Shown piece after piece: positions 7,610 through 33,815 of a stretch of DNA of 64,000 nucleotides; positions within the stretch are counted from its first letter, which is position 1; each line of letters begins with the position of its first letter. Location: NCBI GenBank assembly GCA_964640295.1, contig CAZXFX010000010.1, positions 4,360 through 68,359 on the forward strand. Direction: 5' to 3'. The position numbers and the translations under genes were made by a program. This DNA is from an uncultured Dehalococcoidia bacterium (lineage in GTDB: Bacteria; Chloroflexota; Dehalococcoidia; Lucifugimonadales; UBA1123). The notes beneath the pieces were generated by a model that was not told where the DNA came from, ran no database searches, and saw nothing but the letters and a program-made list of their open reading frames with translations.

Positions 7610-8674
7610 CTATCGCAGCGCGGCGACAACTGCGTCGCCCACGTCCTCTGTGCTAGATGTCCCGCCAATATCCGGGGTAAGCGTCTCTCCCAGCGCGACC
7701 ACGCTGAGCGAAGCGTTTTCTACTGACTCCGCCGCGGCTTCCTCTCCCAAATGTCGCAGCATCATCGCGCCCGACAAGATAGTCGCAAGTGGATTCGCTA
7801 TCCCCCTACCCGATATGTCAGGCGCCGATCCATGCACCGGCTCGAACATGGACGGATACCGTCGCTCTGGGTCTATATTGCCGCTCGGCGCCAAACCCAT
7901 GCTGCCCGTGATGATAGCGCCGATGTCCGTCAGTATGTCTCCAAACAGATTGCTTCCCACCACCACGTCAAACGTTTCCGGCCTGCGAATGAAGTCCATG
8001 CAGGCCGCGTCAATCAGAAGCGAGTCGGTCTCGATATCGGGATATTCCTCGGCGACCCGCTCGAAAGCCCTGTCCCACACAAGCATTCCGTATCCGAGCG
8101 CGTTCGATTTGGTGATGGACGTAACGCGCTTGGCCTTGTCGCGCCTGCGCGCCACTTCGAAAGCGTGCCGGATGATACGCTCGCAGCCCTTGCGAGTGAA
8201 AACCGCCGACTGTATTCCAAGCTCTTCTGGAAAATCCGGATAGACGAACCCGCCAACATCTGCGTACTCGCCCTCCGTATTCTCCCTGACGACCACCATG
8301 TCAATATCGCCGGGTCCGTACCCTTCCAGAGGGGACGTTATGCCCTCATACAAGGCGCTTGGACGCTCGCACACGTACTGATCGAACGACCTGCGTATAG
8401 GCAGCAGCAGCCCGCCCAGCGTGACGTGATCCTGTATGTCCGGGTGCCCGACCGCGCCCAGGAATATGGCGTCGGACTCGCTCAGCGTGTCGAGCCCGTC
8501 CGACGGCATGACCGTCCCATTCTCCATATAGTATTCGCTGCCCCAGGGGCGCTCCACCCAATTCCACGCGATTCCGTACTCTTCGCCCACGGCGTTCAGA
8601 ACCTTGACACCCTCTTCTATGACCTCCACCCCGATCCCGTCTCCCCTGATAACCGAAATCTTGTATTCCGACAT
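7610..8674 (-). CDS. isocitrate/isopropylmalate dehydrogenase family enzyme (tartrate dehydrogenase-like)
   Basis: N-terminus ISVIRGDGIGVEV; NLFGDILTD and GSAPDI motifs. Start taken at ATG 8674 (MSEYKISV...). Confidence 0.8.
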   Translation of the reverse strand: MSEYKISVIRGDGIGVEVIEEGVKVLNAVGEEYGIAWNWVERPWGSEYYMENGTVMPSDGLDTLSESDAIFLGAVGHPDIQDHVTLGGLLLPIRRSFDQYVCERPSALYEGITSPLEGYGPGDIDMVVVRENTEGEYADVGGFVYPDFPEELGIQSAVFTRKGCERIIRHAFEVARRRDKAKRVTSITKSNALGYGMLVWDRAFERVAEEYPDIETDSLLIDAACMDFIRRPETFDVVVGSNLFGDILTDIGAIITGSMGLAPSGNIDPERRYPSMFEPVHGSAPDISGRGIANPLATILSGAMMLRHLGEEAAAESVENASLSVVALGETLTPDIGGTSSTEDVGDAVVAALR

Positions 8675-8812
8675 TGGATTCACTCCAGCTAGTATCGCGT
8701 CTTTTCTCGCGCTGCTATTGTAAGACTCGCAACGCGGGATTGCATCTCGCATACTTGTGCTACAATTCTCGCTAAACTTGAATACCTAATCGCCAAACGC
8801 TAGGAAAGCGCA

Positions 8813-9757
8813 GTGAACCCATTCATAGAAGCTCTGACCAATCCACTGGGAAAAGGCATACAGGAACTTGAAATCTACTTCGCAGACCGACCTGACATTC
8901 GTTCTGAACTCAGAGCCCTGCGAGAGTCGCTACATTCGCCGTGGCGCGATTACGACGCTCAGGTCGCTCACGTTAGCAAAGATGACCCGGAAGACGCCCT
9001 GAGAATCGCGCTGTCCCTCCGCGCCTCCGCGGAGACTCTCGCAGAGGACATCGCTCAGCGGGCTCGCCCCATACTTGCCTGCGCCGAACAGGCGATAGCC
9101 GCCGACATACGCGCCACGATGGCTCCAAGTCTCGATGGAATATACATCATCGTTGACCCGGAGGCTACGCGCGGGCGTCCCGTAACCGACGTGGCGCGGC
9201 AGTCTCTGGAAGGCGGAGCGCGAGTCGTCCAGCTAAGGGACAAGCTCAATGACAAGGGGGATATGCTGAGGTCCGCCCGAGATCTGAAATCCATCTGCGA
9301 CGAATACGACGCTCTTTTCGTGATGAACGACCACGCGGATCTGGCCCGCGCCGCCGAAGCCCACGTATTGCACGTTGGGCAGACCGACCTTCCCGTTCCA
9401 GCGGCGCGCGACATACTCACTCCCACCCAGCTAATCGGCAACTCCAACAACGGACTGCCCGAAGCCGCCGAGTCCGCCAAGTTAGGGGTGGACTATCTGG
9501 CTGTTGGCGCGATCTACGCCACCGCGACTATGGGCAAGTCGGGCCGAAACGCGCTGGGTCCAGAGGAGATTACTCGCGTCAAGGAAGCGATTTCGCAACC
9601 CATAGTCGCCATTGGCGGCATAAACAAGACGAACATCGCCGACGTGGCAAAGGCGGGCGCGGACTCTGTTTGCGTCGTCAGCGCGATCACCTTCGCCAAC
9701 GATCCGGAAGCGGCCACTCGTGAACTGGTTCAACTATATGAAAACGCAAAAAGTTGA
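8813..9757 (+). CDS. thiE: thiamine-phosphate synthase with ~100-aa N-terminal extension
   Basis: C-terminal ~210 aa is ThiE-like (IYIIVDPE..., VVQLRDK, HVGQTDLP, AIGGI). GTG start. Confidence 0.8.
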   Translation: MNPFIEALTNPLGKGIQELEIYFADRPDIRSELRALRESLHSPWRDYDAQVAHVSKDDPEDALRIALSLRASAETLAEDIAQRARPILACAEQAIAADIRATMAPSLDGIYIIVDPEATRGRPVTDVARQSLEGGARVVQLRDKLNDKGDMLRSARDLKSICDEYDALFVMNDHADLARAAEAHVLHVGQTDLPVPAARDILTPTQLIGNSNNGLPEAAESAKLGVDYLAVGAIYATATMGKSGRNALGPEEITRVKEAISQPIVAIGGINKTNIADVAKAGADSVCVVSAITFANDPEAATRELVQLYENAKS

Positions 9758-9774
9758 TTTTCGGAACTAAATAT

Positions 9775-10455
9775 ATGAATAATGAACGAATTTCTACCGA
9801 GAGACTCATACAATCCATACAGTCAGCCGGAGTCGTCGCATCCGAATTGATGGCTGGAACGCACGCCGCGCGCGAACAGGCAATCGGCACGTCTCGCCAG
9901 ATCATCCGGTTTTCAGCGAACTCGATACGCGCCACTCATCGCGCCGAATACGACGAAGCGAGACGTCTCATCGCGAGGGCGACCGACCTTCGCGCAACTC
10001 TGGAAGAAGGTAGAAGAACCTACCCGGAGGTATATTACGGCGGATACGTAGAAGACGCCCTCAAGGAGTTCGTGGAAGCGCGCGCCACTCTGGCAATCGC
10101 CGAAGGATCTCGCCTGCCCACGATGGACGAACTGGACGTGGGCCCCGCCGTTTACATGAACGGTCTGGCGGAAACAATTGGGGAACTGCGTCGCATAACG
10201 CTAGACCTATTGCGCGGCGACGATTTCGCCAGATGCGAGACGCTCCTCTCCATCATGGACGAAATATACGCCGCGCTCGTCACCATTGACTATCCCGACG
10301 GCGTCACGCGCGGACTGCGACGAACGACAGACGTCATGCGAGGAGTCCTCGAGCGCACCCGCGGCGACATTACCGTGGCGCTCCGCCAGCGGCGGCTGGA
10401 AGAGCGTTTGGCGGAGTTGAACGAGAAGTTGGGGGTAACGACGATAGACAGTTAA
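9775..10455 (+). CDS. translin family (C3PO-like) protein
   Basis: Translin-like helical bundle motifs: KEFVEA (E-x-x-E) and YMNGLAETIGELRR. I preferred ATG 9775 over the TTG at 9754. Confidence 0.6.
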   Translation: MNNERISTERLIQSIQSAGVVASELMAGTHAAREQAIGTSRQIIRFSANSIRATHRAEYDEARRLIARATDLRATLEEGRRTYPEVYYGGYVEDALKEFVEARATLAIAEGSRLPTMDELDVGPAVYMNGLAETIGELRRITLDLLRGDDFARCETLLSIMDEIYAALVTIDYPDGVTRGLRRTTDVMRGVLERTRGDITVALRQRRLEERLAELNEKLGVTTIDS

Positions 10456-10589
10456 TCCGAATGACGCTGTCCGCCCTCGCCATCTTGACCAACACTACCC
10501 TAAATCGTATATTACCTCCGAACTGGGAGAGAGTTTACGCCCGTGTCATCTGACTCATGCGGGCGGCATCCACGATTGGAGGGCACACT

Positions 10590-11477
10590 ATGGCTTACGG
10601 ACAAGGCGACTACCAATACGAATTGGTAGAGAACTGGGGAAACCTTCCCGAAGGGTACGAATGGCACCAGGTAGCGGGCGTTGCGGTGGACAGCAATGAC
10701 AACGTTTACGCATATAACCGCAGCGAACACCAGTTGATGGTCTTCGACAGCGACGGCAATTTTCTGAGCGCGTGGGACGAAGTGTTCGCTGGCCCGCACG
10801 GCATCCACATCGCTCCGGACGACAGTGTCTATCTCGCCGACCGCGACGCCCACGTCATAATGAAATACTCGCCCGACGGAAATATGACGCTCAAGATTGG
10901 CACAGGAGCGGCTTCGGACACGGGCTATACCACCAACGCCGAACCAGTGCCGCGCGCCGCCGGCCCATTCAACCTGCCTACGGGAATCGCCGTTTCCGAA
11001 GAGGGAGACATCTTCATTACGGACGGCTACGGGAACGCCCGCGTGCATCGTTACACCGATACCGGTTCGCTGCTGCTATCGTGGGGACTGCCCGGCAAGG
11101 TTAATCCCGGCGACTTCCATCTTCCGCACGGAATCGGCATTGACCACGACGGCTTCGTGCTGGTGTGCGACCGCGAGAATGACCGGATACAGGTCTTCGA
11201 CCAGGAAGGCGAATTCCAGAATATGTTCACGGGTTTCCGTCAGCCTACCGACGTGTGCGTCGGCCCGGACGGAGAGATATACGTGCCGGAACTGCAAGGA
11301 AGAATGACCATCATAGACGACGAGGGCAACGTCCTGTCGCAGTGGGGCGGCGAACGCACCCATGAAGCGGGACAGTTCTGGGCGCCGCACGGAGTGGCGG
11401 TGGACTCGCGCGGCGATATGTACATTGGCGAGGTGCTGGATGGTATGCGCCTGCAGAAATTCGCAAGAGTGCGATAG
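10590..11477 (+). CDS. NHL-repeat beta-propeller protein (peptidyl-alpha-hydroxyglycine lyase-like)
   Basis: Repeated blades (PHGIHIAPDDSVYLADR, PTGIAVSEEGDIFITD, PHGIGIDHDGFVLVCDREN, PHGVAVDSRGDMYIGE). ATG 10590 is preceded by GGAGGG. Confidence 0.75.
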   Translation: MAYGQGDYQYELVENWGNLPEGYEWHQVAGVAVDSNDNVYAYNRSEHQLMVFDSDGNFLSAWDEVFAGPHGIHIAPDDSVYLADRDAHVIMKYSPDGNMTLKIGTGAASDTGYTTNAEPVPRAAGPFNLPTGIAVSEEGDIFITDGYGNARVHRYTDTGSLLLSWGLPGKVNPGDFHLPHGIGIDHDGFVLVCDRENDRIQVFDQEGEFQNMFTGFRQPTDVCVGPDGEIYVPELQGRMTIIDDEGNVLSQWGGERTHEAGQFWAPHGVAVDSRGDMYIGEVLDGMRLQKFARVR

Positions 11478-11507
11478 GCGCGTCGAATACCGCATAGTTG
11501 CTATAAT

Positions 11508-11553
11508 GAGCCATCCTCAGCCGTGTCGCTAGATGATACGGTGAGGATGGCTC
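11508..11553. repeat. perfect 12-bp inverted repeat (22-nt spacer) upstream of the HEPN-like gene
   Basis: GAGCCATCCTCA (11508-11519) pairs with TGAGGATGGCTC (11542-11553). A TATAAT sits immediately upstream (11502-11507) and an A6 run immediately downstream. Confidence 0.7.
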
Positions 11554-11581
11554 AAAAAATGTCGAGAGGAATTTCCCGCGA

Positions 11582-12031
11582 ATGACGACCATTTACGCAA
11601 CTCCGGAAGCGCTGTCCGAAGAATACAAGCAGACAGGACAACGCTATATCCGCCAGGCCGACGCCGAATTCGACAAAGGCGACTTCCTCCAAGCGTCCGA
11701 AAAAGCTTGGGGCGCGGCTTCTGAATATGTGAAATCTTTGGCATCCCTGCGTGGTATGCCCCATGAATCACATAGAGAAATCAGAATAGCCGTCAACCAC
11801 TTAGTTGTAGAGACGAACATGAGGCAAATTCGCCCCCTATTCGCGGTCGCTGAAGGAATGCATGCCAACTTCTACGAAGCATGGATGCCTGAAGAGGAAG
11901 TAAAGGATGGAATCGAGAGCGTAAAAACGCTGATAGCCCTTCTCGAAAACATCCCGTCGCCCAGCGGAGACGCTCCCATTCGCCCCCCAAGAGCGCGCCT
12001 GTTCATCCGAGACCGCGGCGATGACCAATAG
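11582..12031 (+). CDS. HEPN-like / PaREP1-like small helical protein
   Basis: 149 aa. The segment DKGDFLQASEKAWGAASEYVKSLASLRGMPHESH shares a pattern with the ORFs at 48623 and 49009 (A..GD...A......A......A..RG.....H). Confidence 0.45.
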   Translation: MTTIYATPEALSEEYKQTGQRYIRQADAEFDKGDFLQASEKAWGAASEYVKSLASLRGMPHESHREIRIAVNHLVVETNMRQIRPLFAVAEGMHANFYEAWMPEEEVKDGIESVKTLIALLENIPSPSGDAPIRPPRARLFIRDRGDDQ

Positions 12032-12080
12032 AGATTTCTGACGTCTGACTATCGAAAACTTTAACTAAGGAGAACGCAAA

Positions 12081-13727
12081 TTGAATGGAGACCAGGCAAT
12101 AGCCAAGATACTGAAGAAAGAGGGCGTGGAGTGGATCGCGGCTTTCCCCGCGCAGACGCTGATTGACGCCTGCGCCCGCGAAGGGATACGACCCATTCTC
12201 TCGCGACAGGAACGCGCCGGCGTCAATATGGCGGACGGATTCAGCCGAATCAAGAACGGCAACACCATCGGCGTGTTCACGATGCAGACCGGCCCCGGCT
12301 CTGAGAACGCGTTTGGCGGAGTCGCCCAGGCGTTCGCGGACTCCGTGCCAATACTCTGTCTGCCGGGTGGACAGCCTTCGAACAGCATGGACGTGCATCC
12401 CAACTTCGAGGCTGTCAAGAACTACGGCGGCATCACCAAGTGGATGGCGCTCGTCAACAAGGTGGAGCGAATCCCCGAACTGATGGCGATGGCGTTCACG
12501 CAGCTCAAGCACGGCAGGCTCGGCCCCGTTCTGCTTGAACTGCCGCGCGACGTGATGATCGGCGATATACCCGACGCGCTGGTTGACAGCTACAAGCCTG
12601 TGAAGAAGTTCAGGTCCGGCGCCAGCGCGGAGGATGTCCGCGATCTGGTAGCCGCGCTGCTGGCAGCCGAAAACCCCGTCATAAACGCGGGACAGGGCGT
12701 AATGTACGCCGAGGCGACCGACGAACTGGTCGAATTCGCCGAACTCACCAACATCCCTGTCATGACGACGCTCGCGGGCAAGAGCGCCTTCCCGGAAGAC
12801 CACCCGCTCGCGCTCGGAACCGGGGCTTCCTCCGGCACGCTCATGTGCCAGCATTTCCTTGAGAAGACCGACTTCGTGCTGGGCATGGGAACCAGTTTCA
12901 CGATCTCCAACTTCAACGCGCCGATGCCGTCGGGCGTCACGCTCGGCCACGCGACGAACTGCGCGGACGACGTGAATAAGGATCACCGCGCAGACTACGG
13001 CGCGATTGGCGACGCCAAGGTCGTGCTTAACCAGATGATAGAAGAGGCGAAGAGCCAGCTTGGCGAACACGGACGCGGCGACGTTCACGGCGTTCGCGAC
13101 GAGATAGCGAAGGTCAAGGGCGAATGGATGGCTGAATGGACGCCATCGCTGAACTCGGACGAAGTTCCCATCAGCCCATACCGCGTATTCACCGAGCTCA
13201 TGAAGGCGGTTGATGTCCGCGAGACTATCATTACGCACGACTCGGGCTATCCGCGCGAGCAGATAGTTCCCTTCTGGCCCGGCGTGACCCCGCGCAACTA
13301 CATCGGCTGGGGCAAATCAACTCAGCTTGGCTACGGACTGGGACTCGCGCTCGGCGCGAAGATGGCGGAGCCTGACAAGCAGGTCATCAACATCATGGGC
13401 GACGCCGCCTTCGGCATGGCCGGACTGGACATCGAGACCGCTTCCAGGTCCGAGATTCCCATACTGACTGTGGTGCTGAACAACGGCGTTATGACGCACT
13501 ACTACGACCACATGCCATACGCCACCGAACGCTGGAACAGCAACGCGCTCGGCGGAGAGTACGCTGAAGTCGCGCGCGGCCTCGGCGCCTATGGCGAGAA
13601 GGTCAGCGATCCGGACGAAATCGCGCCCGCGATTCAGCGAGCGCTCGCGGCTAACAACGAAGGCAAGCCGGCCCTGCTGGAAATGAAGACGAAGGAAGAG
13701 GAGAACGTCTCGCGCTACTGGCGCTAG
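12081..13727 (+). CDS. thiamine-diphosphate-dependent enzyme (acetolactate synthase / sulfoacetaldehyde acetyltransferase-like)
   Basis: 548 aa. ThDP motif GDAAFGM...NNG near the C-terminus. TTG start preceded by AAGGAGA. Confidence 0.85.
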   Translation: MNGDQAIAKILKKEGVEWIAAFPAQTLIDACAREGIRPILSRQERAGVNMADGFSRIKNGNTIGVFTMQTGPGSENAFGGVAQAFADSVPILCLPGGQPSNSMDVHPNFEAVKNYGGITKWMALVNKVERIPELMAMAFTQLKHGRLGPVLLELPRDVMIGDIPDALVDSYKPVKKFRSGASAEDVRDLVAALLAAENPVINAGQGVMYAEATDELVEFAELTNIPVMTTLAGKSAFPEDHPLALGTGASSGTLMCQHFLEKTDFVLGMGTSFTISNFNAPMPSGVTLGHATNCADDVNKDHRADYGAIGDAKVVLNQMIEEAKSQLGEHGRGDVHGVRDEIAKVKGEWMAEWTPSLNSDEVPISPYRVFTELMKAVDVRETIITHDSGYPREQIVPFWPGVTPRNYIGWGKSTQLGYGLGLALGAKMAEPDKQVINIMGDAAFGMAGLDIETASRSEIPILTVVLNNGVMTHYYDHMPYATERWNSNALGGEYAEVARGLGAYGEKVSDPDEIAPAIQRALAANNEGKPALLEMKTKEEENVSRYWR

Positions 13728-29138: not shown

Positions 29139-29708
29139 ATGGGAATCTTCAGCTCGATATTCGGACACGCCGAAGTCAGGGCTCCGACGAAAGAAGATTT
29201 CTTCTCGATCATCGGAGCCGCCCGTGTCTTGGAAACCAGATCGGAATTGCGCTTGACCCGCATGGCCGGACTTCTCGTCAACCCGGTCGAAGCGTCTTAC
29301 TTCGACAAACTGGACGCAGAACTCAGAAGGTTGCTTGACCTGAACGGAGCGGCGACAGGAACCCGGTTCGAGATACGAGACGACGAATTCGATACCCGCT
29401 GGATCGTACTGGACGAACCGGACTTGGAGAGACTGACAAGCCTGATACATAACGCGGCTGAAACGATCATCGAGCGCGGTTTCGCCGACCGTCTTCTCGC
29501 CGCCGCTTTCCTGTTCCACTACCGGGGCCGTCCCGCCTACTGGCTCTACGACTATAAGCTGCAACGCTTCTACCCATTCATGCCGACCGACAGCCGCAAG
29601 CGCGACTGCTCAGCCGAAATGCGACTGCTCGAAACCATGCGCGACGAGAAGATGCCCGTAGCGCGCAGGCAGGAACAGCGTCGCCCCCTGTGGGGAATAC
29701 CGTTCTGA
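29139..29708 (+). CDS. hypothetical protein
   Basis: 189 aa clean ORF with backbone-like composition. No motif recognised. Confidence 0.5.
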   Translation: MGIFSSIFGHAEVRAPTKEDFFSIIGAARVLETRSELRLTRMAGLLVNPVEASYFDKLDAELRRLLDLNGAATGTRFEIRDDEFDTRWIVLDEPDLERLTSLIHNAAETIIERGFADRLLAAAFLFHYRGRPAYWLYDYKLQRFYPFMPTDSRKRDCSAEMRLLETMRDEKMPVARRQEQRRPLWGIPF

Positions 29709-29737
29709 AGCCTCGACAGTCCTCTTGCCCCAGTCAC

Positions 29738-29913
29738 ATGGTTAGGAACACAATATCCACATGGCTTGGGGAAGTCGAATATACGGATGAATTCGAGGAC
29801 TGGTTCCTTGAACTATCACAAAGTCAACAGCGCTCCGTAAAGTGTACGTGCCGATATCCGACGACCTGTATGACATATATCTAAAAGAACTTGACAATGA
29901 GGGGTTGATATAA
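29738..29913 (+). pseudogene. remnant of a RelE/HigB-like toxin gene (internal deletion plus frameshift)
   Basis: Frame 1 gives the N-terminal piece WLGEVEYTDEFEDWFLELSQSQQRSV. A second frame gives the C-terminal piece RKVYVPISDDLYDIYLKELDNEGLI, ending in a TAA that overlaps the next ATG (TAATG at 29911-29915). Only ~58 codons remain, where the full-length toxins I recall from this family are roughly 110 aa. Confidence 0.45.
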
Positions 29914-30230
29914 TGAGCGGGCATCATCCAATCAGTAAATTGTTTGAAAAACTGACACAGGAAGACCGCCGGATCATAGAGGAAGTGAAATCGGAATTAC
30001 TCGCTGATATAGAACGGCGTGAGGCCCAAGTAAACGGCTACGCCGAGCAAGAAGACATACCTGAACCGTCCGAAGAGACAGCCAGCCCCAACAACCCGCT
30101 AAACAGTAGCCGCCTCTACCTCGGCGGCAGCGACAGCCCCTCGATGAACTCCAGATTCCCCAGTTTCTCGAGTTCCGCCGGAGCCATCTTCAGCTTGAAC
30201 GAGCGGCTGCCCCCGCCCAGTATCACGTAA
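29913..30230 (+). pseudogene. probable antitoxin remnant (lacks HTH); ORF runs into the convergent ybaK-like gene
   Basis: The N-terminal ~35 aa (ISKLFEKLTQEDRRIIEEVKSELLADIE) resemble the leader of HigA-like antitoxins. The remainder is low-complexity and overlaps 30116..30616 on the other strand. Confidence 0.25.
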
Positions 30231-30616
30231 TCCAGGTCGCGCAGTTTCGCGTCCGCGTAGATGGGCAGGTCGTCCGGCAGTCCGAAGGGCGTCACCCCGC
30301 CTATCATCATGCCTGTAAGTTCCATCGTCTCGTCCGCGCTGGCGAACGACGCGCGAGACACCTCCATCAACCTCTTTACTCGCTTATTCACGTCCAGCCT
30401 GTCCGTCGCCGCCACGATGCACACGCAATACTTCTTGGCGCCTCGCTTGGACGCGACCACGATAGTGTTCCCCGACTTCTCCAGCGGAAACCCGTACTCT
30501 TCGCAGAACTGCGCCGTGTCCGCGAAGTCAGGGTCTATCTCGAACATCTCGTACTCCGCGCCCGCGGACTCCAGCCTGGACTTCACTTCCTGCTCAATGC
30601 CGTCTGATACAGTCAT
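30116..30616 (-). CDS. YbaK/ProX-type aminoacyl-tRNA deacylase domain protein
   Basis: 166 aa. GGVTPFGLP and VILGGGSR segments are typical of the YbaK/EbsC family. Confidence 0.8.
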   Translation of the reverse strand: MTVSDGIEQEVKSRLESAGAEYEMFEIDPDFADTAQFCEEYGFPLEKSGNTIVVASKRGAKKYCVCIVAATDRLDVNKRVKRLMEVSRASFASADETMELTGMMIGGVTPFGLPDDLPIYADAKLRDLDYVILGGGSRSFKLKMAPAELEKLGNLEFIEGLSLPPR

Positions 30617-30626
30617 TCTCTATCCC

Positions 30627-31091
30627 TCACTTCAATTTCTCGATTATGCCGCGTCCGCATCTCAGCGAATCCACCTGAACCCTTCGGCCCCTGAAGCTAA
30701 TCCAGTTAGCGCGTTTTAGCAATTCCTCTCGTTCTTTCCTGTGAAACTTTCCGCCATAGACCGCAAGCGGAACAAAATTCACATCCACGTCTCGAGGAAC
30801 AATTCGCTCCACGAATCGCGCCCCGGCCCTCAACTGCTCTACTACATAACTCGCGTCGAGGTCACCCCTCTTCAACTCCATCGCCACCACCCGGTCGCCA
30901 TCGTCACTGACGAATATGAAGTCGCACCTTCTGTCCTGTCGCCCGATTCCCAGCCCGCGGCAATCCATGTTTATCAAGACGCGGTCTCCCTGGACGCCAT
31001 CCATATTGACCGAACATCCCCGCGCTCTGCACCTCGTCGCCAGACATCTCTCCGCCACCGCCAAGCGAACCGCTTCAACAAGTCCCGCCAT
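30627..31091 (-). CDS. small PD-(D/E)xK-like (restriction-endonuclease-fold) protein, partner of the upstream ATPase
   Basis: 154 aa. CDFIFVSDDGDRVVAMELKRG fits a D...(D/E)xK core. Cys-rich N-terminus. Start overlaps the ATPase stop (TAATG). Confidence 0.55.
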   Translation of the reverse strand: MAGLVEAVRLAVAERCLATRCRARGCSVNMDGVQGDRVLINMDCRGLGIGRQDRRCDFIFVSDDGDRVVAMELKRGDLDASYVVEQLRAGARFVERIVPRDVDVNFVPLAVYGGKFHRKEREELLKRANWISFRGRRVQVDSLRCGRGIIEKLK

Positions 31092-32632
31092 TAAACCTCG
31101 CTCCGCTCTAAGCGGTTAGAAATGGAGGCATAATCATTGTAGGTTCCCATAGACACCTCATCGAACCCCGACCTGAACCCACCAAATTCCTCATCGAACG
31201 CGATCTCCTTCACAACCGACCCGCGCGGCCTTTGTTTTGGCTCGAAGAGCCACACCCCCAACTGCTCTGGCGTCAGAGCGTAATCCGCCCCCCCGATGCC
31301 CTCGCGCCGCGACATCGGCAGCCCCGACACCCTCACCAAGTTAGCAAGCTCATCCAACACCCACTCACTATGCGTCGTGATTATCACCCGGACACCCGCG
31401 CGTACCACCGCAGCCAACTGCCGTGTGAACTCGACCTGCATCGCCGGGTGAAGGTGCGACTCCGGCTCCTCGATGATCAGGGTCTCCCCCGGCTGAACCA
31501 CGTGTCGCAGGTAAAGCACAACCGGAGCCAACTCCGACACCATCGAAGACGTGTTCATCAGCGGAACATCTTCCTTCCAACCTTCAGGCCTGTAATAGAA
31601 CATCGGGTAGCCCGTGATCGAATTTTCAAAACGCACAGAACCTTTCAGTATTTTTCGTTCGATTCGCGCAGGAAGTCCAGCCTCGTTATCTAAACTTCCG
31701 CCCCGAGTATTTGTCCTGATGTCCAGTTCAGTAAGCTGGCGCAAGAAATCCGCGATAACTCCGGAAAGAAGTGGTAAAGATTCTTCGCGTTGGATCCTCG
31801 AATACGAAGCGCGTTGGATCAATGAGCCTACTGCCAGCCTATGCGCGTGCATTACGCCAGCGCGGTCAGACGGGAGATAATGCGCCGGCTGATTTAGTGG
31901 GTATCGAATGTAGGATTCAACAAGCCTTACGAGATCTTCCAAGAGGAAGAGAATTTCCACTTTCTGGTCTTCTCCAAATTCTGTATGGCTCAAAGCATAT
32001 CTGACATACCGTGTGCGCTCCCTGAGATTTTCAATTTCCTCTTTGTCAATCTCTCCAAGGAATAGCGGCATACTATCAGGAATGGAAACGACGAACTCGT
32101 CCCCTTTCCGCGTTATCATATATCGGTATTCGAAAGATGTTATCTCAGTTTGGTACGAGAGTTGAGGTTTGATTGAGATATGGGCGCCATTCTTGCTGGA
32201 ATAACGGATTAGCTTGTCTGTATCCGCTATTCCGAATCCTCGAGCTATCTCACTATTCAGCCAGGCGCCGAAAGACTCTATTCTGATAAGAAATGGCCTG
32301 ATGCTAGTGCTTATAGAATCTGGGATTGGCGTATGAGCGCCTTCAGGAGAAACGCCTCTAGTCTCGAATTGCGAATGTAGAGTATCTATCCAGTGAATGA
32401 ACTCGCTTATACGTCCATCAGACATATCGGGGTCGGGAATTGAACCAATCACTCTAGTATCGTAGATACGTCGGTGAAAAAATTTGTGCAGAGCGTAGAT
32501 CAAAATCGCCAGATACGACTTCCCCGTGTTGCTTGGCCCGACGAACACGGTCAGCGGACGCAGGTCTATATCAGCCCTGGCGATGGGACCAAAATTCTTG
32601 ACGCTCAGCTCAAGATTCTTACGCTCAACCAA
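31091..32632 (-). CDS. ABC-type AAA ATPase (AAA_15/AAA_21-like, defence-associated class)
   Basis: 513 aa, TTG start. Walker A GPSNTGKS, long helical insert, YLPSDRAG, Walker B LIIEEPESHLHP, H-loop ITTHSEW. No fused nuclease domain. Confidence 0.8.
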   Translation of the reverse strand: MVERKNLELSVKNFGPIARADIDLRPLTVFVGPSNTGKSYLAILIYALHKFFHRRIYDTRVIGSIPDPDMSDGRISEFIHWIDTLHSQFETRGVSPEGAHTPIPDSISTSIRPFLIRIESFGAWLNSEIARGFGIADTDKLIRYSSKNGAHISIKPQLSYQTEITSFEYRYMITRKGDEFVVSIPDSMPLFLGEIDKEEIENLRERTRYVRYALSHTEFGEDQKVEILFLLEDLVRLVESYIRYPLNQPAHYLPSDRAGVMHAHRLAVGSLIQRASYSRIQREESLPLLSGVIADFLRQLTELDIRTNTRGGSLDNEAGLPARIERKILKGSVRFENSITGYPMFYYRPEGWKEDVPLMNTSSMVSELAPVVLYLRHVVQPGETLIIEEPESHLHPAMQVEFTRQLAAVVRAGVRVIITTHSEWVLDELANLVRVSGLPMSRREGIGGADYALTPEQLGVWLFEPKQRPRGSVVKEIAFDEEFGGFRSGFDEVSMGTYNDYASISNRLERSEV

Positions 32633-32660
32633 AATTTGCAGTCCTATTCACTCAGACAAT

Positions 32661-32885
32661 CTATATATCCACCAAACGTTCCTCAGATAGTCGCACATAC
32701 TCTTCATTAGTGTCTATACCGACATGTCGCCTGCCAAGAGACAGCGCGGCCACAGTCGTCGTGCCTGAGCCAACGAATGGGTCCAGAACTGCATCCCCTG
32801 GCTGTGTGAATAGCTTGATGAACCAAGTCGGAAGCGGAAGCGGAAACACCGCGCTATGCTTCTTGTTTGAGGACTCTGTCTTCAT
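32661..32885 (-). pseudogene. 5'-truncated DNA (N4/N6) methyltransferase fragment
   Basis: Only the C-terminal ~70 aa remain: HSAVFPLPLP...VLDPFVGSGTTTVAALSLGRRHVGID (AdoMet motif I). There is an in-frame stop ~14 codons upstream, and no DPPY-type motif is encoded upstream. Confidence 0.7.
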
Positions 32886-33163
32886 GTGGATGACATTATT
32901 CGGATACGCTAAATCTCGCCCTACCTAATTGGATTGGGAACTCTGATTTTTGAGGACCGGCATTCTAGCGGACCGCGCCGTCGGTAACGCAACACCTCGC
33001 GCAAGGCTACACTCTCGTTGCGCGCCCGGTGGATAGAACCGGATGCGCCGCTCTCCCAACGCTTCCCGACAGGTTCGCGTTGTTGTCCACAAGCCTTCGT
33101 CTGTAAGATAATAGCTGATGGCGGCGGCGCCAGATTCAAAACATTGTGAGAAGAGATACCAAT

Positions 33164-33457
33164 ATGCGACGAGACCAAGCCCTTAGAATACTCACCCAGC
33201 ACAAGGACGAACTCCGCGAGATGTTCGGGGTGACGTCCATCGCCATCTTCGGCTCCACCGCCCGTGACGAGGCAAGACCCGACAGCGACGTGGATACACT
33301 GATAGAGATAGAACGTCCCGCCGGGTTCTTCGAGGTCGCGAGAGTGAAGTTCTACCTAGAAGACTTGCTAGACACGAAAGTTGATCTTGCGACCCCGGGC
33401 GCACTGAGAGCCCCGATTCGCAAACGGATATACGAGGACCTGATCTATGTGCGATGA
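33164..33457 (+). CDS. mntA: nucleotidyltransferase, MNT-type antitoxin
   Basis: GSTARDEARPDSDVD motif. Overlaps the downstream HepT gene by 11 nt. The ORF track starts at GTG 33146. Confidence 0.85.
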   Translation: MRRDQALRILTQHKDELREMFGVTSIAIFGSTARDEARPDSDVDTLIEIERPAGFFEVARVKFYLEDLLDTKVDLATPGALRAPIRKRIYEDLIYVR

Positions 33458-33815
33458 CAGACGCGACTGGCGCCTACGCCTGAGCGACATCCGAGACTCG
33501 GCGGAGAAAATCCTCCGATACGTACATGAAATGGATTTCGACACGTTTAGCCAAGATCAGCGAACCATTGACGCCGTAGTGCGGAACTTCGAGATCATCG
33601 GAGAGGCTGCCAGACACGTCCCGGACGAGTTCAAGAGCGCTCATCCACACATATCTTGGCGAGAGATGAACGATATGAGAAACACGCTCATCCATGCGTA
33701 TTTTGGCGTTGATGTAGCTATTGTATGGGGTACGATAGTCAATAACCTGCCGCCCCTGCTTTCATCAATCCGCGAGCTAGTTGAATCTCATCCATATACG
33801 ACCGACCAAAATTAG
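33447..33815 (+). CDS. hepT: HepT (DUF86, HEPN) toxin
   Basis: 122 aa. R-x4-H motif in MRNTLIHAYFGVD. Confidence 0.85.
   Translation: MCDDRRDWRLRLSDIRDSAEKILRYVHEMDFDTFSQDQRTIDAVVRNFEIIGEAARHVPDEFKSAHPHISWREMNDMRNTLIHAYFGVDVAIVWGTIVNNLPPLLSSIRELVESHPYTTDQN

Follow-up and report, generated by a model that had tools for sequence, protein, structure and literature searches.

An ATPase gene and a small nuclease gene in the window

The window studied here, a 64,000-nucleotide (nt) stretch of DNA from an uncultured Dehalococcoidia bacterium (contig CAZXFX010000010.1), carries on its reverse strand a gene for a predicted ATP-binding cassette (ABC) ATPase of the OLD type and, directly downstream, a gene for a small protein predicted to be a PD-(D/E)xK nuclease (Table 1). 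An earlier reading of the sequence alone, called the original prediction below, had proposed the two genes as a candidate defense module. Both open reading frames (ORFs), the TAATG junction and the motifs that it quoted were located at the coordinates and residues given there. In the junction, GTT TAA TG GCG, the stop codon of the ATPase gene and the ATG of the nuclease gene share one base. The TTG start of the ATPase gene is kept in relatives, and so is the close spacing at the ATPase/nuclease junction, where the two genes either overlap (TAATG or TGATG) or lie no more than 8 nt apart.

Table 1. The gene pair, its motifs and the flanking features, with positions in the window (aa, amino acids)
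Feature	Position	Strand	Remarks
OLD-family ABC ATPase gene, putative sensor/regulator	31091..32632	-	513-aa ORF, TTG start
Walker A GPSNTGKS, ATPase residues 32-39	32516..32539	-	G32 and S34-S39 invariant in 32 homologs
YLPSDRAG, residues 252-259, Q-loop equivalent carrying Arg, as OLD-type ATPases do	31856..31879	-	
ABC signature region NTSSMVSE, residues 360-367	31532..31555	-	
Walker B LIIEEPE (385-391) and D-loop SHLHP (392-396)	31445..31480	-	L385 to P396 invariant
H-loop ITTHSEW, residues 418-424	31361..31381	-	T419 to L426 invariant
ATPase C-terminal extension, residues 461-493, candidate nuclease-docking surface	31154..31252	-	
Small PD-(D/E)xK nuclease gene, putative effector	30627..31091	-	154-aa ORF, ATG start
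Nuclease N-terminal Cys motif C16-x4-C21-x4-C26	31014..31046	-	
Nuclease catalytic core: D43 (NMDC), C56-D57 (RCDF), E72-L-K74 (MELKRG), Q86 (EQLRAGA)	30819..30971	-	
Deletion scar; relatives carry a restriction endonuclease gene of about 0.8 kb (EcoO109I-like) there	32633..32660	-	
N6/N4 DNA methyltransferase remnant (about residues 180-269 of a 306-aa enzyme)	32661..32933	-	Residual ORF 32661-32885
MNT/HepT toxin-antitoxin pair flanking the hotspot	33146..33815	+	Pfam NTP_transf_2 8e-17, HepT-like 2e-30
Decayed Gp49/HigB-like toxin gene (29681-29910) and small partner ORF (29913-30074)	29681..30074	+	

The co-localization of homologs, which the original prediction had left to be checked, was found: the small gene directly follows the ATPase gene in 17 of 18 further non-redundant loci, collected through either protein. 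A scan of one genome per species (185,579 genomes) with a single peptide pattern, which must miss distant members, recovered the small protein in 13 genomes. Ten of these are labeled Dehalococcoidia bacterium and one uncultured Dehalococcoidia bacterium (all metagenome-assembled genomes), and the others are one Binatia and one Caldilineaceae. In each of the 13 the small gene has the ATPase gene immediately upstream, down to 40% identity for the ATPase and 35% for the nuclease. Distant ATPase homologs of about 52% identity, including those of Gemmatimonadota, also have the small gene directly downstream (loci L003 and L018 to L020). The sole exception among the loci found through the ATPase is L021, which has no small gene. 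These results indicate that the ATPase and the nuclease are a conserved coupled pair. In L021 (positions 8001-12437), a BREX-related/Hma locus, the ATPase gene stands alone between DUF499 and DUF1156 genes and is followed directly by the DUF1156 methyltransferase gene; this ATPase is either an orphan or one whose effector was recently lost.

Properties of the ATPase

The assignment of the larger protein to the AAA_15/AAA_21 class, with no Toprim or HNH domain fused to it, was upheld. The Pfam scores exceeded the cutoffs for both AAA_15 (76.4 bits, 4e-21; cutoff 32.1) and AAA_21 (47.6 bits, 3e-12; cutoff 27), and every ABC motif was invariant among 32 homologs with 51 to 71% identity. The invariant positions include Y252, L253, P254, R257 and G259 around the Q-loop equivalent, N360, S362, S363, S366 and E367 of the signature N360-x-SS-x-x-SE, and the Walker B and D-loop segment at residues 385 to 396, which reads LIIEEPESHLHP. 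R257 gives the window ATPase an Arg at the Q-loop position like that of WonA, the ATPase of WonAB, a two-gene system shown to defend (PMC12137116). In WonA the corresponding R182, in the motif IPAGRS, is required for defense (PMC12137116).

The C-terminal extension (residues 459-507) was highly conserved in the same set of homologs, with W461, L462, F463, P465, R468, P469, S472, V474-E476, G484-S488 and D491 invariant. By analogy with the WonA-WonB model in PMC12137116, this extension is a candidate surface for docking of the nuclease. In a sequence search of the PDB, the best match of the ATPase was the OLD nuclease 6p74, and the other matches were retron-type PtuA-like ATPases only; all were confined to the surroundings of Walker B. 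An AlphaFold2 model built on the 32-sequence alignment was poor, with a predicted local distance difference test score (pLDDT) of 59.5. The nearest folds to this model in Foldseek were PtuA, OLD, GajA and SMC/Rad50 heads at template modeling (TM) scores of about 0.2, which serve as corroboration only. From its motifs and profile matches, the window protein is classed as an OLD-type ABC ATPase without a fused Toprim or HNH domain.

Properties of the small nuclease

The small protein had no match in Pfam or NCBIfam. Searching 1.84 billion representative proteins with a profile yielded 1,292 clusters (defined at 50% identity) at E <= 0.001, of which 798 had E <= 1e-10, and the length was 150 to 165 aa in nearly all of the best 150 of the 1,292. 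The D...(D/E)xK core that the original prediction had read into this protein was substantiated by the conservation of its signature at 90% or more in 63 homologs, with which the predicted fold and the homology to WonB, the nuclease of WonAB, agree. Across this diverse set, E72 and Q86 never vary. Conservation reaches 90% or more at C16, C26, D43, C56, D57, K74 and C145, and at position 21 Cys is the consensus residue, shared by the majority (>=50%). The segment at residues 56 to 76, CDFIFVSDDGDRVVAMELKRG, contains the central part of the core. In Vibrio cholerae WonB, the substitution K71A abolished defense (PMC12137116), and we infer that K71 is the lysine of the E-L-K motif. The cysteines C16, C21, C26, C56 and C145 (30654-31046) may form a structural metal site. 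WonB-type proteins likewise have an N-terminal Cys pair and a Cys preceding the catalytic Asp.

The structure check called for in the original prediction gave a confident AlphaFold2 model (pLDDT 93.4; predicted TM score 0.89), and the top matches in a Foldseek search of the PDB were almost all PD-(D/E)xK enzymes: NucS, Bse634I, EcoO109I, MunI, MspJI, Can2/Cdn1, N.BspD6I, Hjc, SgrAI, LmuA and FokI. The viral library BFVD gave the same picture, and in both searches the evidence lies in the consistent enrichment of PD-(D/E)xK folds and not in single matches. A PDB sequence search with the 63-sequence profile returned noise only (E about 0.8), and a tblastn query with the small protein found no match in 72,556 plasmids. 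By its modeled fold and its D...D...ExK...Q signature, the small protein is a PD-(D/E)xK-type nuclease, with an activity that is predicted.

Genomic context of the pair

Another defense system surrounds or adjoins the pair in 12 of 19 informative non-redundant loci, when the methyltransferase remnant of the window is counted; the 19 loci are not phylogenetically independent, and the counts are descriptive. The neighbors counted as defense were type II, type IIG and type III restriction-modification (R-M) systems, BREX-related/Hma systems and AIPR. In two relatives with type II R-M (L001 and L002), the gene order is N6_N4 methyltransferase, EcoO109I-like restriction endonuclease, pair and ybaK. 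A 1,035-aa Eco57I/MmeI-like enzyme is encoded upstream of the pair in L010, and in L014 and L015 the pair lies between the type III mod and res genes. The BREX-related/Hma loci carry the pair between DUF499 and DUF1156 genes (L019 and L020) or downstream of a Snf2 helicase gene with DUF1156 following (L018). The pair is typically carried inside methylation-based defense systems.

Among syntenic Dehalococcoidia (L001, L002, L004, L009 and L023), the slot between MNT/HepT and the ATPase gene varies. It holds an EcoO109I-type R-M system in L001 and L002; in L004 it holds a methyltransferase gene, a TdeIII-like restriction endonuclease gene and a 24-codon EcoO109I remnant, with a helix-turn-helix (HTH) gene after the pair; in L009 it holds AIPR and HTH genes; and in L023, where only a conserved 94-aa ORF precedes the pair, it holds no R-M system. 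This upstream slot behaves as a cassette-exchange hotspot with the pair as the constant element. The original prediction had placed the pair in a defense island, and a small defense hotspot is what these loci support.

The gene ilvD lies downstream of the pair in both L013 and L015, and the pair occupies the same position in L013, which has neither mod nor res. Because ilvD is common to the two loci while the type III genes are absent from L013, this locus has lost its host type III system and kept the pair, as a second case besides the window. The window lacks a conserved ORF of about 94 aa, without a Pfam match, that precedes the locus in L001 (5814-6098), L002 (5978-6265) and L023 (3-236); its product could be a controller or regulator of the locus.

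Decay and constraint in the window

The 5'-truncated methyltransferase gene that had been noted 28 nt upstream of the ATPase gene is indeed a remnant: its 74-aa ORF matches the Pfam N6_N4_Mtase profile (E 8e-22) only over the last third, positions 156-221 of 221. When the intact L001 methyltransferase was compared with the window by tblastn, residues 180-269 of the query aligned at 86% identity. Alignment with L001 (6323-7997) and L002 (6342-7989) showed that the EcoO109I-like restriction endonuclease gene was cleanly deleted from the window and that the 3' end of the methyltransferase gene now meets sequence lying about 25 nt ahead of the ATPase start. The window also lost the first 179 or so methyltransferase codons, the 94-aa ORF and the intergenic region, and about 1.3 kb is missing upstream. 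An identical ATPase with the same 74-aa methyltransferase remnant was found on an independent short contig. These results indicate that the host type II R-M system of the window decayed and that the pair persists alone.

The two flanking pairs that had been described, MNT/HepT and a decayed HigBA-like pair, were both verified by Pfam and tblastn. The MNT/HepT pair is syntenic in L001 and L002. The Gp49/HigB-like gene (region 29681-30230) is broken by an internal deletion and a frameshift: tblastn with the intact L002 Gp49 (PF05973) recovered residues 2-58 and 124-147 in different frames, with about 65 codons missing, and the 56-aa Gp49 partner matched at 47% identity. The partner ORF is still open in the window, extended to 105 aa and into the 3' end of ybaK.

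The ratio of nonsynonymous to synonymous divergence (dN/dS) against relatives was 0.15 to 0.21 for the ATPase gene and 0.13 to 0.36 for the nuclease gene, compared with about 0.06 for the adjacent ybaK; against the closest relative it was 0.13 to 0.15 for the pair. The pair is therefore under purifying selection that is weaker than that on the housekeeping gene ybaK, as is usual for defense genes. Divergence was discordant between genes. Against L022 (window 30116-31091), the synonymous divergence (dS) was 0.13 for the small gene and 0.75 for ybaK; identities of ATPase and nuclease were 83% and 65% against L023 and 71% and 78% against L004. This discordance points to recombination or horizontal exchange inside the operon. 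Elsewhere in the window, two stretches of lower G+C content (0.46 at 22001-24000 and 0.41 at 46001-48000, versus about 0.58 elsewhere) may be other acquired islands.

Possible function and alternative explanations

We propose, with a probability of roughly 0.7, that the pair is a self-contained anti-phage module for abortive or backup defense, in which the ATPase is a sensor that holds and then activates the nuclease. The ATPase, probably a dimer or a higher oligomer, would bind the small nuclease, probably via the conserved C-terminal extension, and keep it inactive. The variable inserts of the ATPase would sense a phage cue, and ATP binding or hydrolysis would then activate or release the nuclease. 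The nuclease would cut nucleic acid and so halt the development of the phage, with the infected cell probably sacrificed. The complex, its trigger, the substrate of the nuclease and an abortive outcome are our inferences. The defense conferred by WonAB depends on both genes, on the ATPase motifs and on the lysine of the nuclease; with WonA inactive, WonB is lost; a prediction places WonB on WonA's dimerized C-terminal extensions; and the outcome is abortive infection without lysis, after phage DNA replication begins (PMC12137116). Two further systems, PARIS and retron-Eco7 PtuAB, are reported to be trigger-activated and tRNA-targeting (PMC11464382; PMC12673091).

Because the clade is repeatedly nested in unrelated methylation-based systems, a backup or guard role of the PrrC or PARIS kind is suggested. 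A broader version of this idea, which we consider doubtful, makes the clade a general-purpose guard of methylation-based immunity that is portable across at least five unrelated host systems. The ATPase would then monitor the integrity of the host R-M, type III or BREX-related/Hma system, or detect phage anti-restriction proteins directly, and the PD-(D/E)xK effector would be released once the first line was disabled, following a PrrC- or PARIS-like logic. Such a pair would be able to persist as a stand-alone sensor after loss of its host system.

Several observations weigh against a self-contained anti-phage module. No hidden Markov model of a named system in PADLOC or NCBIfam covers the ATPase or the nuclease at full length, and the neighbors are housekeeping genes only in 7 of the 19 loci. 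The anti-phage role of the window clade is argued from tested relatives. The ATPase model is poor, so the proposed docking surface and oligomeric state are borrowed from WonAB. For the nuclease, the Foldseek matches are individually non-significant (best PDB E 0.034; none below 0.001 in PDB or BFVD). In WonAB the DNA is not simply degraded (PMC12137116), so the nuclease substrate may be DNA or an RNA such as tRNA. The window lacks the upstream region with the promoter of the former R-M operon, and scanning for consensus promoters was uninformative (2 sites versus 2.0 expected).

The restriction-endonuclease fold of the effector would also suit a direct restriction enzyme, an ATP-driven complex that cuts incoming phage DNA by degenerate or modification-dependent recognition and works beside the neighboring methyltransferases in a type III or type IV manner. 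The location of the pair in L014 and L015, flanked by mod and res, the adjoining methyltransferases elsewhere, and the degenerate site preference with which several nuclease-NTPase systems cut DNA in vitro (bioRxiv 10.1101/2025.07.10.664194) are consistent with this explanation. However, the pair is found with methylation systems of at least five unrelated kinds and was kept after their loss in the window, L013 and L023; because of the many host kinds and this retention, dependence on one methylation pattern is improbable. The triggered activation and tRNA targets of the OLD-family relatives PARIS and retron-Eco7 PtuAB also speak against direct restriction, which we regard as unlikely. A silent relic, in which the promoter is lost and disabling mutations have yet to accumulate, would fit the decay of three neighboring defense or toxin-antitoxin genes (endonuclease deleted, methyltransferase truncated, HigB broken), the absence of about 1.3 kb upstream that included the start of the former operon, and promoter-like sites of which none was convincing. 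Yet both ORFs are full length with every catalytic residue intact, dN/dS against the closest relative is low, L023 and L013 likewise carry the pair without R-M, and the same configuration recurs on an independent contig, all of which makes a relic very unlikely.

Housekeeping DNA repair or recombination in the manner of SbcCD or RecN/NucS, with the defense neighbors a coincidence, seems to us the least probable account. Its basis is the loci with metabolic neighbors only, RecJ encoded directly upstream of the pair in L003 and beyond the SNF2 helicase gene upstream in L018, the purifying selection on both genes, and the presence of NucS among the nearest folds of the nuclease. Against this stand the recovery of only 13 of 185,579 species-representative genomes (with a single peptide pattern that misses distant members), the location of the pair in a slot where R-M or abortive infection cassettes swap among syntenic genomes, and a constraint weaker than that on ybaK (0.06). 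Discordant divergence of the genes, with a dS below that of ybaK, points to horizontal exchange, and the closest relatives of known function are defense systems. The sensor-nuclease module remains the reading that we prefer.

Relation to known defense systems

The PADLOC results given here are profile matches and not system calls by the thresholds and rules of that tool. The best matches of the window ATPase were PD-T4-4_A (4.7e-36) and PDC-M47A (1.7e-28), ahead of NsnB, AriA, GajA and Old, and all were partial. The small protein gave a weak match to PDC-M47B (1.4e-4) and nothing else notable. Among the 63 family members, the PDC-M47B model was matched by 35 (best E 1.7e-7) and the PD-T4-4_B model by only one.

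PD-T4-4, from Escherichia coli, emerged from a selection for anti-phage function (Vassallo et al., 2022; PMC9519451), and it assembles into higher-order complexes (bioRxiv 10.1101/2025.07.10.664194). A genuine pair lies on the E. coli plasmid pSCU-105-5 (L017; A 3e-123, B 1e-43). The window pair resembles it in being a two-gene operon in which an OLD-type ABC ATPase gene precedes that of a small stand-alone PD-(D/E)xK nuclease. The L017 ATPase aligns with residues 7-493 of the window ATPase at 24% identity (E 4e-21), and the nuclease cores share the pattern C-D...(D/E)-L-K...Q. The two differ in several respects: the window ATPase scores 123 bits in two stretches (profile 247-443 of 460), whereas the genuine L017 ATPase scores 364 to 410 end to end, and the window nuclease has no PD-T4-4_B match at E <= 0.1. 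Comparison of the family profile with the L017 nuclease in hhalign gave 12.8% probability and covered the C-D...L-K...Q core only. The window nuclease has 154 aa and an N-terminal Cys motif, in contrast to 198 aa for the PD-T4-4 nuclease. With a partial ATPase match and a partner without a PD-T4-4_B match, the window pair was not assigned to PD-T4-4.

Adams et al. (2025) group PD-T4-4 with WonAB and 'OLD-ABC ATPase + novel REase' (restriction endonuclease) operons (PMC12137116), and Krishnan et al. (2020), according to PMC12137116, had compiled operons of an OLD-ABC ATPase and a small stand-alone restriction endonuclease. Comparison of the 63-sequence profile with eight WonB or novel-REase sequences from Supplementary Tables 4 and 5 of PMC12137116 in hhalign gave 93% probability (E 3.5e-7) over 87 columns, which span the catalytic C-D to near the C-terminus of the nuclease. 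An N-terminal Cys pair and the residues D, C-D, E-L-K and Q are collinear, corresponding to D44, C54-D55, E70-L-K72 and Q82 of WonB. The two-gene architecture is the same and the nuclease size is comparable (143-154 aa), but the nuclease identity of about 20% indicates a distant relationship. BLASTP alignment of the window ATPase with a published WonA-type ATPase was limited to the region around Walker A and to residues 317-433 (28% identity, E 5e-10), and the inserts and C-terminal extension of the two ATPases differ. WonA and WonB fall to the AriA and PDC-M29 models of PADLOC and not to those of PD-T4-4 and PDC-M47. WonAB is prophage-borne, whereas the window clade is mostly embedded in R-M or BREX-related systems. 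Among the entries covered from the workbook with Supplementary Tables 4 and 5 of PMC12137116, none is from Chloroflexota or Gemmatimonadota; the search by those authors covered complete and chromosome-level RefSeq genomes only.

PDC-M47, a PADLOC candidate system, is the sole PADLOC system with both components matched by the window pair. The B match is weak (19.8 bits, profile 14-88 of 158), the A match comes in two pieces, and a genuine PD-T4-4_A matches PDC-M47A far better (6e-92). A literature search on PDC-M47 found nothing.

Dyads of an ABC ATPase and a nuclease embedded in BREX-related/Hma systems have been described (PMC12839542; bioRxiv 10.1101/2024.01.29.577857; PMC11232893), as HEC-01 to HEC-03 (bioRxiv 10.1101/2024.01.29.577857) and as 'backup effectors' (PMC12839542). 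The window clade is like them an OLD-ABC and PD-(D/E)xK module nested in methylation-based defenses. However, HEC-02B is a NERD-type nuclease to which the window nuclease has no PADLOC match, and the window ATPase matches HEC-01A and HEC-02A at about 1e-12 only. PrrC, found in EcoprrI, differs as a single protein with a fused anticodon nuclease.

Septu, PARIS, Gabija, OLD and AbiL share the OLD/AAA_15-AAA_21 ATPase class and the sensor-ATPase/nuclease logic with the window pair, and the PADLOC matches of the window ATPase to their models were confined to the Walker B/H-loop region. The effectors differ, with HNH in PtuB, Toprim in AriB, GajA and OLD, and PD-(D/E)xK in the window. The suggestion in the original prediction of a divergent Septu- or AbiL-type system failed on this point. 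Septu was rejected on its HNH partner and on an NCBIfam PtuA score of 23.3 bits versus a cutoff of 500, and AbiL on a partner that is neither HNH nor Toprim. PARIS, Gabija and OLD were rejected as well, as Toprim was found in neither protein and the AriA and GajA matches are partial. MADS was considered because of a weak MAD3 match and the DUF499/DUF1156 context; it was dropped with a MAD3 score of 21 bits versus an NCBIfam cutoff of 420 and with the assignment of DUF499/DUF1156 loci in the literature to BREX-related/Hma systems.

The clade is unnamed, because neither protein is matched over its full length by the models of any named system. The idea that the system is undescribed therefore holds for this specific clade but not for its kind, since PD-T4-4 and WonAB are already known, and no new kind of mechanism is revealed. 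Members of the small-nuclease family come from Chloroflexota, Gemmatimonadota, Binatia and further uncultured lineages; the family has no Pfam, NCBIfam or significant PADLOC model, and current defense-finding tools probably miss it. The loci form a natural comparison series, with the pair nested in type II, IIG and III R-M or BREX-related systems or alone after decay of the host, which makes it practical to test whether embedded modules depend on their hosts or guard them. Judged by sequence comparison, the window pair is a separate, diverged branch of the superfamily of OLD-ABC ATPases with small stand-alone restriction endonucleases and appears nearest to PDC-M47 and PD-T4-4. This places a large unannotated family of small proteins in the experimentally grounded WonAB/PD-T4-4 class.

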